Positions 30-4,574 of a stretch of 4,574 nucleotides of DNA are shown here, one piece after another (the stretch's first letter is position 1; every line of letters starts with the position of its first letter). Made by a program: the position numbers and the translations under genes. The stretch lies in the IMG/VR virus record IMGVR_UViG_2734482772_000001; one strand, given 5' to 3'. The notes beneath the pieces are model-generated. The model had not been told where the DNA came from, did no database searches, and was given only the letters and a program-made list of their open reading frames with translations. The DNA is from a virus. Its lineage: Duplodnaviria > Heunggongvirae > Uroviricota > Caudoviricetes.

Positions 30-605
30 CTACGGCAGTGCTGGCCATTCAATATCCTGTGCAGTTGACGTATCAACACGGTTCAGCAATACCCGATACT
101 TTTTCCATGCTTCCAGCAACGAGATTTCTTCCTCCGTTGCAATTTCCAGATCTGCAGCATCCTGAAGCGGCGCAATATGCTCACTGGCTACCTGCATCAG
201 GCTGTTTTTTGTTTCTTCCGCCTCTCGGATCCGGAACAGTTTTTCTGCTTCTGCATCTTTCACCCAGGCTGTGCCGTTCCACTTCTGAAACTCCCCTTCC
301 GGCGATAACCAGGTAACATTTTCCGGTAACGGACCGAGTTCAGAAATAAATAACGCGTCCCCTGACGCTACGTCATAAACCGTTTTACCCCGATGGTCTT
401 CAACGAGATGCCACGATGCCTTATCACTGTTGAAAACAGCCACAAAGCCAGCAGGAATATCTGGTGGTGCAATATCGGTACTGTTTGCTGGCAGACCTGT
501 ATGAGGCGGAATATATGCGTCACCTTCACCAATAAATTCATTAGTTCCGGCCAGCAGATTATAAATTTTTATGGTCCGTGGTTGTTCACTCATTCTGAAT
601 GCCAT
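30..605 (-). CDS. tfa: Tail fibre assembly protein Tfa (chaperone for Stf)
   Basis: 191-aa ORF with ATG at 605..603 overlapping the stf stop (TAATG) and a GTGAGG Shine-Dalgarno about 8 nt upstream. N-terminus [61 protein letters not shown]... matches my recollection of lambda Tfa. Stop TAG at 32..30. Confidence 0.92.
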
Positions 606-3565
606 TATGCAAGCCTCACAATATAGTTAAATGCGATGTTTTTGACGGTGTTTTCCGCGTTACCAGCAGCGTTAACGGTGATGGTGTGTCCATGTGAACC
701 AATCGCAACGGAGTGCGTATGAGCACCAATACCGACAGTATGCGCGTGTGCACCTGCAGATGCTGCTGTGCCGGACAGTGAATGGCTATGATTACCATCT
801 GTACTGGTATTCGCTAACCACCCCGTAGACATACCTACTGAGCCTTGTACACCCCAGGTATTTTGACCTGAGCTTGTATAACCATATTGATAAGTATCTT
901 TAAAAACACTGGGGTTAAATCGACGGCCATCTCTATGGCTGTGATTACCAGCTGCATTCGTGCTGCCACTTAAACTATGGGTATGCGCACCAGTGTTATT
1001 CGTGGATTTAGTGCCGTAATCAAACGACGATGTGGTTTTCGTCCCCAAATCCGTACTGGATGCGCTGGCGCTGTGGGTATGCGATTTAATGCCGTCCTGT
1101 TCCTGAGACAATACGGCCCGACCACTGGCAGGTTTGCCCTTAATCGTCCAGCCACGCATATCAGGGATCACGCCTGACGGATAAGCGGCTGCAAGTTTCG
1201 GGTATGCAGATTTGTCAAAAGTCTGCCCCTGCATCAGGGCATAGCCAGACGGAACGGTATCTGATGGCCACGGGATTGGTGCGCCAGGCGGATAAAACTG
1301 CTCTGATGGCGTATAGAGTGAATAAACTGTACCGTCCGTTAACCCTTCCGGCTTATTAGCAGAATATGCTGGTGACGTATGAATCGTCACGCTGGCATTA
1401 CTGGTATAATCCCATTGAATATTTACACCAGTCGCATAATTTCCGATTGCAACGTAAATATCGTAAGTATCACCAGATGTATTGACCCAGGCAAAATTTG
1501 TAAACCCTGTCGATGTGCGCTGCCATAAAGCACCAGTAATCCCCTTCGGATTACCATTACCTGCACGTAAAACAAGTTCAGATATACCTGCCTGTTGAGG
1601 TGACCCCACGTTAAATCCAGCGCCACCAATCAACGTAATTGAAACAACAGAACTCGCCTGTGGCATGGTTACCGTTGCTAATTTGAACCAACCAGCACCA
1701 CCGCTGAATGACATTGTTGTTGAGTTAAGCGTACCAATATCTTTCGGCGTCAGTGTTATATCCGCTGAAAGCGCCTTACCATTCACCTTACGGGCAGAAG
1801 GTACCCGACCATTCGCATTGTCATTAGCTGCTTTCACTGCTTTCGGTGTCGCAGCAAGCGTTTCAGATGTGCTGTTGGTTGCACTACTGAGCTGGACAAT
1901 TCCTTTTTGTGCTGTCGTAGCGTCCTGTGCGGTGTATTTCCCGTTAGCCAGGTCATACGCGGCCTTAACGGCTTTTGGCGTTACCGCCTGTGACTCGGAA
2001 GTGCTGTTAGTCGCACTGCTGAGCTGAACTATCCCTTTCTGTGCTATCGTTGCATCCTGTGCGGTGTATTTCCCGTTAGCCAGGTCATACGCGGCCTTAA
2101 CGGCTTTTGGCGTTGCCGCCTGTGACTCGGAAGTGCTGTTGGTCGCACTGCTGAGCTGTACTATCCCCTTTTTCGTCGTGCTCGCATCCTCAAGCGCCAC
2201 GGCGGATGCAATATCCTCTGCCCGTTTTGCTGCTGTCTCGGCGCGCGTTGCCGCGGATTCCGCCGTACTTTTGCTCTGTGCTGCCGCTGCCGCACTGCCA
2301 GCAGCCTCTGTCGCCTTCGTGGATGCCGTCGTGGCGCTGCCCCTCGCTGCTGACGCCTGTCTGGTCGCCTCATCTTTTGAAGCAGACGCAGATGATGCCG
2401 ATGACGCCGCCGAACTGGCGGACGATGCGGCAGCCGTTTTTGAGGATTCTGCGCTGGTTTCCGACGCTTTCGCGTTCGTTTCGGATGTCTTCGCTGCGGA
2501 AGCAGACCTCGCTGCTGCGCTGGCCTGTTCAGTGGCTTCGCCAGCCTTCGTTGTGGCTGTTGAAGCAGACGATGCGGCACTTTCTGCCGACTTTCCGGCA
2601 GCGGTGGCACTGGCTGAGGCCTGCCCGGCACTTGTTGACGCGGCGCTGGCAGATGATGCAGCCGCTGTTTTTGAGCCTGCCGCAGCCGAGGCGCTCTGTC
2701 CCGCTGCCGTTTCAGAAGACCTGGCGTTCGTCTCGGACGTTTTTGCCGCCTTCGCGGAATTTCCTGCCGCCGTTGCCGAGGAAGCGGCACTACTGGCGCT
2801 TGATGATGCGTTCGTTTCTGATGATTTTGCCGCCTCTTTTGAAGCCGACGCATCCCGTGCTGAAGTGGCTGCTTCTGACGCTTTCGTAGTCGCGGTGGAT
2901 GCAGAAGTGGCTGCTGATTGTTGTGACGCTGCCGCATTCGTTTCTGACGTTTTCGCCGCACCGGCACTGGTAGCCGCCGCGCTTTTTGAGGACTCTGCAG
3001 CGGCAGCACTTTTTAATGCTTCAGTGGCCTTTGTTGATGCCGTTCCTGCGCTGGAAGACGCTGACTGAGCCGACGAAGCAGCCTGTCCGGCTGACGTGCT
3101 GGCTGCGCGTGCTGAGCCTGCAGCATCAGTCGCATGGGTTGCCGCCTCACGGGCTGATGTGCTGGCATCGCTGGCTGACTTCTTCGCGGCTGCCGTGTTC
3201 TGTGCCACCGCGGACGCGTTACGCGCCACCTCTTCCACCATCAGTTCAAAACGGCGCAGTGCCTCAGGACGGGCATCATCCTCCGTCATGGCACCGAGAA
3301 AATCATTCAGCGTACCGGGTCGGGAATCTTCATACACGGTGATGGTCCCGGCATGTGACGGCGGGAATCCTTCCACCAACAGAATAACGCTGTACTGACC
3401 GTACTCAACGTCCATGCTGTAACGCCCGGCTTCATCCGGATTTTCTGAGGCCAGCGTGTTCACCACCACCGTGGTACTGTTACGTTTTGCTTTCAGCTGG
3501 ATTGTGCAGTTCTGTACCGGTTTTCCTGTGCCGTCTTTCAGTACACCTGAAATCTTTACTGCCAT
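605..3565 (-). CDS. stf: Side tail fibre protein Stf (lambda Stf-like, long form)
   Basis: Long ORF; I place the start at ATG 3565..3563, which has a GGGG(TG) Shine-Dalgarno at 3569..3574, giving [24 protein letters not shown]..., which matches my recollection of the lambda Stf N-terminus. The GTG at 3571 used by the ORF track has no ribosome-binding site because it abuts the terminator U-tract. Contains an Ala/Ser/Thr-rich shaft, 44-aa tandem repeats, a His-rich HxH cluster and a conserved C-terminus ...[25 protein letters not shown]. Stop TAA at 607..605 overlaps the tfa start. Confidence 0.9.
683..1090 (-). other. His-rich HxH motif cluster in the Stf C-terminal (distal) region
   Basis: Motifs read directly from the translation: [61 protein letters not shown]. 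Repeated HxH in phage long tail fibre tips is known to form metal-coordinating sites (e.g. T4 gp37). Confidence 0.6.
1850..2187 (-). repeat. In-frame 132-bp tandem repeats inside stf: two near-identical copies plus a degenerate third, each encoding a 44-aa unit
   Basis: Plus-strand copies 1924..2055 and 2056..2187 are identical over the first ~110 bp apart from three substitutions (A/G at 1984 vs 2116, A/G at 2009 vs 2141, A/T at 2027 vs 2159) and diverge in the last ~20 bp. A degenerate copy lies at about 1850..1923. Protein unit: [18 protein letters not shown](A/V)[22 protein letters not shown](I/T)AQ, followed by the divergent [33 protein letters not shown]. Confidence 0.9.
2198..3223 (-). 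other. GC-rich low-complexity Ala/Ser/Thr-rich shaft segment of stf (about residues 117-458)
   Basis: Translation is dominated by A, S and T with recurring motifs such as [22 protein letters not shown] and TKA(S/G)EA. The DNA is visibly GC-rich (GCN/TCN/ACN codons) and lacks stop codons in several frames on both strands. Confidence 0.85.
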
Positions 3566-3574
3566 ATTCACCCC

Positions 3575-3603
3575 ACAAAAAAGCCCGCCTGAACCGGCGG
3601 GCT
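3575..3603 (-). terminator. Putative rho-independent terminator downstream of lom, immediately upstream of stf
   Basis: Minus-strand reading 5'-AGCCCGCC GGTTCA GGCGGGCT TTTTTGTGGGG-3': an 8-bp GC-rich stem (plus 3582..3589 pairs with 3596..3603), a 6-nt loop and a U-tract (plus A-tract 3577..3582). It starts about 27 nt after the lom stop codon. Confidence 0.65.
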
Positions 3604-3629
3604 GTCATAACACTGTGTTACCTGGCTAA

Positions 3630-4229
3630 TCAGAATTTATAACCGACACCCACGATGAAACCGTCAGTGCGCCAGTCGCCACTGCCGGAACCTTCATAAG
3701 CGACATCAACGGCCACGGATTCGGTCGGGTTAAACTGCACGCCAGCCCCCCACGCCAGAGACGTGTTGCTGTGGCGACCGTCATCACTTCCGATCAGCAC
3801 ATCGTGCGTTTTCCCCGTATTGTCGGTCACCTGCAGATAATCCCCGGAGAAAGTCGACACACGGCTGTAAGCCACACCCGCCATCGCATACGCGCTGAAC
3901 CATTCATTCACGCGCACAGACGGCCCCGCCATCACGCTGAACCAGCGGTTACGCACGGAATCTTCATGCCAGCGGGTATCGCTGTAATGCGTTTTTTGCT
4001 CATCTTCAGCGTTGGCATAACTGAATGACGTAATCAGCCCCAGCGTGTCCGTAAACTCATAATGGTATTTCACGTTAATCCCGTTCAGATTATCGCTGCC
4101 GGGAGCGTTCGTACGGGCATGAAGATACCCTGCGCTCAGTGTGGCCTGCTGCTCAGACGCCCATGCAGGCGCACCGGATACGGCCAGACAGATGGCTGCG
4201 GACAAAATGGCTGCACAAACTTTACGCAT
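3630..4229 (-). CDS. lom: Lom outer-membrane protein (Ail/Lom/PagC family 8-strand beta-barrel), lambda Lom-like
   Basis: 199-aa ORF with ATG at 4229..4227 preceded by a GAGAGG Shine-Dalgarno (plus 4235..4240) and ending at TGA. N-terminal signal peptide [24 protein letters not shown] with an AWA/SE cleavage-type site. C-terminus ...[20 protein letters not shown] ends in an aromatic Phe, typical of OMP beta-barrels and matching my recollection of lambda Lom. Position between J and stf matches lambda. Confidence 0.92.
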
Positions 4230-4234
4230 AATTA

Positions 4235-4240
4235 CCTCTC
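4235..4240 (-). promoter_or_regulatory. Shine-Dalgarno sequence for lom
   Basis: Minus-strand GAGAGG, 5 nt upstream of the lom ATG. Confidence 0.6.
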
Positions 4241-4250
4241 GCTTTTCTGC

Positions 4251-4278
4251 AATAAAAAAGGCGCCATTTCTGGCGCCC
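4251..4278 (-). terminator. Putative rho-independent terminator between the J-like gene and lom
   Basis: Minus-strand reading 5'-GGCGCCA GAAA TGGCGCC TTTTTTATT-3': a perfect 7-bp GC-rich stem (plus 4260..4266 pairs with 4271..4277), a GNRA-type GAAA tetraloop and a 6-U tract (plus A-tract 4254..4259). It begins about 19 nt after the J-like stop codon. Confidence 0.5.
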
Positions 4279-4296
4279 GTATATGGGTTATAAAAT

Positions 4297-4574
4297 TCAG
4301 CTGATACTGATGCCTGCGGTGGCTTTCTTCATCACCACAACCAGCAAATCGCTGATACTTGCTGTGGGATACCAGTCATTTACCAGCCATGCTGACACCG
4401 AAAACTCCAGCGTCATGTGGCCGTGACCAGCTGGCATATCAATAACACCACTGTAAATCAGCGTATTATCCAGCGCGGTACGGTTATAAATTTCAGCACC
4501 ATTTTTCTTCACTATCAGGCGGCATGACGAATAAATATCGTTATTCTCCCGCTCATGCGTATTTTCATGAAAGG
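4297..4574 (-). CDS. C-terminal end of a host-specificity / tail-tip fibre protein (likely lambda J homolog); 5' partial, continues beyond the window
   Basis: The minus-strand frame ending at TGA (4297..4299) stays open with no stop through 4572, so the 71-aa ORF in the track (GTG at 4510..4512) is only the tail of a longer gene. Extended translation ends ...[31 protein letters not shown]...[14 protein letters not shown]. It sits directly upstream of lom on the same strand, as J does in lambda. Assignment is by synteny; I cannot verify the sequence against J from memory. Confidence 0.6.

Follow-up and report, generated by a model that had tools for sequence, protein, structure and literature searches.

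The window, by which we mean the whole stretch of 4,574 nucleotides analysed here, appears to cover the distal part of the late (tail) operon in a lambda-type Escherichia coli prophage, with the genes J, lom, stf and tfa. Every gene is encoded on the minus strand, on which the order is the 3' end of J, a spacer of 67 nt (4296..4230), lom, a spacer of 64 nt, stf and tfa (Table 1), and these two spacers are the operon's only intergenic ones within the window. The J-like gene carries the annotation gpJ in E. coli genomes matching it at 100%. The start of stf was set by homology to stf of lambda at the ATG at 3565 (MAVKISG...), while the ORF lister gives a GTG at 3571. The lom allele is of the 434 type, as present in lambda h434, and the alignment of its product with lambda Lom gave an identity of 46%.

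Table 1. Positions of genes and other features in the window, listed in the direction of transcription.
Feature	Position	Strand	Basis or description
J-like tail tip / host specificity gene, 3' end	4297..4574	-	Pfam Ig_GpJ_C (E=1.1e-20); stop TGA 4299..4297; continues beyond the window
Hairpin A	4259..4278	-	GGGCGCCAGAAATGGCGCCT then TTTTTATTGC; 8 pairs, 6 G-C; GAAA loop (4 nt)
T-tract of hairpin A (TTTTTT then ATT)	4251..4259	-	Sequence
lom insert	3578..4250	-	673 bp: 21-nt leader, lom, 26-nt 3' UTR, hairpin B, 5 T
lom leader	4230..4250	-	GCAGAAAAGCGAGAGGTAATT; Shine-Dalgarno GAGAGG 4240..4235
lom, Ail/Lom family outer-membrane beta-barrel protein, 199 aa	3630..4229	-	Pfam PF06316 Ail_Lom (E=2.9e-124), full length
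Hairpin B	3582..3603	-	AGCCCGCCGGTTCAGGCGGGCT then TTTTTGTGGG; 8 pairs, 7 G-C; 6-nt loop
T-tract of hairpin B (TTTTTT)	3577..3582	-	Sequence
stf, side tail fibre gene	605..3565	-	Pfam phage_tail_N, Phage_fiber_2, Collar
tfa, tail fibre assembly gene	30..605	-	Pfam Caudo_TAP (E=2.1e-43); start overlaps stf stop (ATAATG)

Several complete E. coli genomes have prophages that match the window at 100% identity over the 791 bases around lom, and in one matching genome the gene order L, K, I, J, lom, stf, tfaQ gives the context of a lambdoid tail operon. Of 5426 complete E. coli genomes, 4798 contain related copies of the lom arrangement, at a median of two places in each. The locus corresponds to the textbook lom region known from lambdoid prophages and carries a very common allele; as such it is already known. 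A scan of genome contigs for more distant lom loci returned mostly copies of the same cassette from Escherichia/Shigella, together with contaminating lambda DNA. Assemblies labelled Neobacillus, Kitasatospora, Leeuwenhoekiella, Bradyrhizobium, Pseudomonas, Shewanella and Oceanobacillus, among others (L187-L198, L200), contained DNA 99.4-100% identical to lambda, and several of the matching contigs are ~48.4-48.5 kb in length, pointing to contamination of those assemblies with lambda. With respect to base composition, the G+C content is 55.8% for lom, 55.5% for the N-terminal part of stf, 46.4% for the 3' end of J and 47.7% for tfa, and GC3 is 61.8% for lom vs 51.6% for J and 47.8% for stf. As a sign of a foreign origin of lom, base composition is not distinctive, the G+C content of lom being close to that of the N-terminal part of stf.

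A number of other features were observed within the tail fibre genes. The Rfam family IS009 (RF02111) has a full-length match at 64..262 on the minus strand, scoring 221 bits where the gathering score is 117; this match lies wholly inside tfa, so the candidate 'sRNA' family coincides with tail-fibre-assembly gene sequence. Within stf there is a 132-nt tandem repeat of 2.3 copies (1869..2173) encoding a repeated 15-residue motif, and also a long Ala/Ser-rich stretch which creates long antisense ORFs, e.g., one of 334 aa at 2064..3068 on the plus strand. These resemble the annotated orf206b of lambda and are probably artefacts.

Each of the two spacers holds a hairpin followed by a T-run, designated hairpin A (distal to J) and hairpin B (distal to lom). 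A preliminary description of this DNA had placed such structures on either side of lom on the minus strand, with the lom-distal one the stronger and the J-lom spacer 67 nt long; all three points were borne out, as the consensus scan recovered both hairpins (4278..4259 and 3603..3582), folding in isolation gave -15.1 kcal/mol for A and -17.6 kcal/mol for B, and the spacer was confirmed at that length. The stem of hairpin A includes one A-U closing pair and one terminal G-U pair, and when folded in the context of its spacer it reached a z of -2.9 relative to shuffles. Hairpin A begins 18 nt past the stop codon of J and hairpin B 26 nt past that of lom, with T6 following both stems on the minus strand only, their reverse complements having no T-run.

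The consensus scan of the window returned five further hits, all of them weak (5-9 pairs, 3-4 G-C) and at the chance level of shuffles. A stricter terminator pattern (>=7 pairs, >=5 G-C and >=5 T in 8) was then applied to dinucleotide shuffles of the window (n=300, both strands), which gave a mean of 0.31 hits, with at least two hits in 13 of the 300. The unshuffled window contains two such hits and no more, located on the coding strand with one in each intergenic spacer, and across the 11.8-kb tail region of a matching genome A and B were the sole strong sense-strand hits. The Rfam search of the window returned, at the hairpins, just a sub-threshold Trp_leader match over B (E=0.49), which was taken as a generic resemblance to terminators. 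Both A and B possess the features of intrinsic terminators, namely a G+C-rich stem-loop (~5-12 bp with a short loop), a 3' T-run and an intergenic position past a stop codon. They are putative canonical factor-independent terminators on the late strand, and from their sequence we infer that they would terminate transcription in vivo.

Conservation of hairpin A was assessed in 80 IMG/VR loci with lom and 86 IMG/VR contigs without it, in addition to species representatives. Among 17 distinct variants, 136 of 136 cells of the stem are paired and none is broken. Compensatory changes occur at two pairs (three variants have A-U in place of G-C, and two have U-A in place of C-G) and three pairs change to G-U only, a covariation which, coming from a small sample of close relatives, counts as supporting evidence and not as proof. 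Almost every variant conserves the T-runs of A and B, a few copies differing in length by one T, and the TTTTTTATT tail after hairpin A is invariant both where lom is present and where it is absent. The variants of hairpin B are mostly G-U wobbles with two single mismatches and include no compensatory changes; for its predicted structure the support consists of conservation and positional equivalents.

Two variations on this pattern were observed. In seven IMG/VR loci (including L010, L018, L020, L022 and L030) the loop of hairpin A reads ATTTCT, not AGAAAT (window 4270..4265); the inverted loop sits between palindromic GGCGCC arms and the structure is preserved. In approximately 20 of the 80 IMG/VR loci the 3' end of lom differs and is followed by a spacer of 150 nt (L069 3098..3254), in which an imperfect long hairpin is followed by a distinct terminator-like hairpin, AGCCCGTGGCGTCACTGCTGCGGGCT, with T7 directly before stf.

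The origin of the two hairpins could be addressed by comparison with relatives that have no lom, namely phage 21 (OL657228), Tritos (OV696610) and 1H12 (LR595850), in which stf begins ~60 nt after J. Their spacer consists of the J stop, ATTTTATAACCCAGATAC, GGGCGCCAGAAATGGCGCC, TTTTTTATT and then TGTGGAGTGAATATG-stf. It equals the J-lom spacer of the window up to TTTTTTATT, and past this point it equals the window sequence downstream of hairpin B. The same lom-less junction is found in the 86 IMG/VR contigs, where hairpin B is absent, and identical variants of hairpin A occur before lom and before stf. In addition, the phage 21 record annotates a hairpin at the position of hairpin A as a terminator. 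Because the same hairpin directly precedes stf in the lom-less phages, hairpin A is assigned to the end of J; it is, as far as these comparisons indicate, the resident J-distal terminator, outside the lom cassette and present with or without lom. Hairpin B is the one that appears to travel with lom, the two being gained or lost together.

Where the lom-less sequence joins GGCGCCTTTTTTATT to TGTGGAGTGAATATG, the window reads TTTTTTATT followed by GCAG... at one end of the insert and GGGCTTTTT followed by TGTGGGGTGAATATG at the other. The left junction falls after 4251 and the right junction between 3578 and 3577, both in or beside T-runs; they were read by eye, MAFFT having put the large gap a few bases off. 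Such junctions may be the product of an insertion of lom or of its precise deletion alike. A lom-less junction carrying the J-distal hairpin of lambda (hairpin A') was also searched for, and only lambda-like loci with lom were found. The lom leader is nearly invariant, showing single-base variants only, across the 80 IMG/VR loci and genomes of Escherichia/Shigella. The preliminary description had regarded lom as a self-contained cassette bracketed by two hairpins, a view that the position of A directly upstream of stf in lom-less phages does not support. Its comparison of the locus to a moron stands in part: lom is optionally inserted between J and stf, which are neighbours in related phages, and appears to bring its own 3' terminator, but a 5' promoter of its own was not found and the leader measures 21 nt.

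The search for a promoter was extended beyond the insert. The consensus scan of the whole window detected no promoter-like site on the minus strand, and so none between hairpin A and tfa. In the 3' end of J together with the spacer, the best sigma-70 PWM score was 8.1, whereas shuffles reached a median best score of 8.5, and the same PWM scan of lambda gave nothing better than the window. No sense-strand promoter match of 9/12 was present in 2.4 kb of J at a near-identical locus. Taken over the window, lambda and this locus, the promoter searches yielded no site that exceeded shuffles. The consensus and PWM scans therefore agree with the preliminary description that the J-lom spacer has no convincing sigma-70 pair, and they lend no support to its further suggestion that a lom promoter may lie within the 3' end of J. 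Within the insert there is no room for a promoter because the leader is just 21 nt. In lambda a TATTAT hexamer directly follows the weaker hairpin A', where the window has TTTATTGC, and this hexamer might serve as a -10 element. A promoter that is weak, activator-dependent or non-canonical may be missed by consensus scans of this kind. Any expression of this lom in a lysogen would have to come from a start upstream of A with leakage through the hairpin or from a non-canonical promoter, and in the sequence there is no positive sign of either.

In lambdoid phages, Q-modified polymerase from pR' reads through terminators; for the present operon the Q gene, pR' and the qut site fall beyond the 4.6-kb window. 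The account we consider likely for the window is that hairpin A is resident at the end of J, that hairpin B belongs with lom in an optional unit without a promoter, and that Q read-through carries transcription across both. It builds on the observed geometry of the spacers, the conserved structures and the presence/absence polymorphism with its junctions. The optional unit would comprise a ribosome-binding site, lom and a terminator, joined to the phage backbone inside T-runs. Only 21 nt separate the tail of A from the lom ATG, the ATG of stf lies 11 nt past the T-run of B, and tfa overlaps stf. Because of this 11-nt gap and the stf/tfa overlap, a polymerase has to cross both hairpins before it arrives at stf and tfa, as the preliminary description had also concluded; in lom-less phages stf is likewise reachable only past hairpin A. 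During lytic growth, Q-modified polymerase from pR' would override A and B and so yield late Lom, stf and tfa, this read-through being the sole visible route by which the three genes could be transcribed. When Q is not present, A would halt polymerases arriving from within J and B would keep lom transcripts out of stf and tfa. Late production of Lom by Q read-through agrees with a statement in PMC9836094 (citing Liu et al. 2013) that Lom is strongly expressed in the lytic cycle.

It could alternatively be proposed that lom is a complete moron, autonomous in the lysogen, with a promoter in the 3' end of J or overlapping hairpin A and with the two hairpins as insulators. Morons are by definition equipped with a promoter and a terminator of their own (Cumby et al. 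2012, PMC3594210), and reviews and array studies list lom, along with bor, cI and rexAB, among the genes expressed in lambda lysogens, that is, from the repressed prophage (PMC7067206, PMC1151598). Expression of lambda lom in the lysogen implies a promoter somewhere, though the present scans found none. The TATTAT directly after hairpin A' of lambda (-9.0 kcal/mol), absent from the window, would suit this proposal, as would lom of VT2-Sakai and the lom-like gene of Fels-1, which with their long AT-rich upstream regions and own terminators look complete. However, the leader at the present locus is too short, and the spacer upstream of it is filled by a terminator that exists also without lom; a promoter placed further upstream would meet a hairpin of -15 kcal/mol and U6. 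The J 3' end variants are common to phages with and without lom, the best sigma-70 score falls short of the shuffle median, and J yields no 9/12 match. One array study of lysogens left lom RNA undetected and remarked that little is known about the lom promoter (PMC2147009). The literature documents independent expression in lysogens only for the lom allele of lambda itself (PMC7067206, PMC1151598), with PMC2147009 not seeing it, and our literature search found no mapped lom promoter or start site, nor any mapping of both terminators or of this allele. For the window we consider an autonomous lom unlikely.

Other roles for the hairpins can be envisaged at the level of RNA or DNA. As Q-modified polymerase ignores terminators, an effect of the hairpins in lytic growth could only be post-transcriptional, and they might act as 3' stabilisers or processing boundaries that give J, Lom and Stf/Tfa message different abundances within the long late transcript. 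The conserved and compensated structure, and the presence of a hairpin before stf in every arrangement seen, are in keeping with this, but the conserved uninterrupted T6 is unneeded by a stability hairpin and is what defines an intrinsic terminator, and we regard such a role as quite improbable. We attach a very small probability to a more elaborate scheme, in which A and the 21-nt leader form a conditional attenuator (with a cryptic or activator-dependent start in or upstream of J and regulated read-through), or in which the conserved lom 3' UTR with B is released as an Hfq-binding small RNA. If either were true, a terminator predating the insert would have become a control element of a lysogenic-conversion gene. 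It is also conceivable that the hairpins have no role in RNA and are conserved linkers at module borders favouring recombination of mosaic lambdoid genomes, given that one and the same hairpin A follows J 3' ends of different kinds, that the lom junctions lie in T-runs and that the inverted loop of A in some loci is a DNA-level event. The compensatory changes in the stem, however, suggest selection on structure and not on sequence identity, and so does the presence, at these positions in both lambda and the second lom type, of unrelated hairpins with T-runs, leaving the linker proposal extremely improbable.

The account of a resident terminator A followed by a promoter-less lom with terminator B matters chiefly for how such loci are annotated. 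The lom gene is a classic phage-borne gene benefiting the bacterial host, and most E. coli genomes contain it in this arrangement. The refinement offered here is that the mobile piece would have a terminator and no promoter and would sit behind a terminator already at the end of J. Because the promoter-less insert lies behind this resident terminator, the sequence alone does not explain production of Lom in a lysogen. It is unsafe to annotate such inserts as independently expressed without transcript mapping; otherwise current understanding is unchanged.

When compared to known systems, the closest similarity is to the J-lom-stf region of lambda (NC_001416 18903-19650), which has the same gene order and in both spacers a hairpin with a T-run. 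Hairpin B, the 3' end of lom and the start of stf are nearly identical in lambda and the window. The J-distal hairpin A' differs, being an unrelated sequence, CGTCCGGGAACGGGCG with the tail TTTTATTAT, that is weaker at -9.0 kcal/mol, and Lom is 46% identical. A mosaic joint was observed inside lom (window ~3700..3545 vs L001 1190..1380): with Lom at this identity to lambda overall, the last ~100 nt of lom, the lom-stf spacer and the start of stf are nearly identical between the two. Luk and Szybalski (Mol Gen Genet 1983) reportedly mapped tandem terminators (t'J) distal to J in the lambda late operon. These t'J sites are likewise intrinsic terminators downstream of J, at the end of the Q-antiterminated late transcript, and may correspond to A and B or to other sites.

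Phage 21, Tritos and 1H12 are identical to the window in the J end, the spacer, hairpin A, the TTTTTTATT tail and the ribosome-binding site and start of stf, and differ in being without the 673-bp lom insert and hairpin B. With morons (Juhala et al. 2000; Cumby et al. 2012) the locus shares an extra gene between genes adjacent in relatives, a 3' terminator and a product useful to the host and not to the virion; it differs in that no promoter can be placed in the lom insert, given the 21-nt leader, and in that its base composition is not distinctive.

The lom gene of VT2-Sakai and the lom-like gene of Fels-1 are Ail/Lom-family genes in the late/tail region that likewise have strong intrinsic terminators downstream; they occupy other insertion sites, and their proteins are 30-42% identical. 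Upstream of lom in VT2-Sakai there are 90 nt of AT-rich sequence with no strong terminator hairpin, and the gene has its own terminator. This terminator (L231 2301..2330) is followed by TTTTTTATTGC, the same 11 bases as are found after hairpin A (window 4259..4248), which may be chance. The Fels-1 gene has 126 nt of AT-rich sequence upstream, with just a weak 5-pair hit at chance level, and two terminators. In this Salmonella phage (L232 1633..2408) it lies between the tail genes M and L and not after J, which indicates that the Lom family entered tail operons at more than one site. The AT-rich upstream regions of both genes could hold a promoter, and compared with them the J-lom-stf cassette is, to judge from its organisation, of a less self-contained kind.
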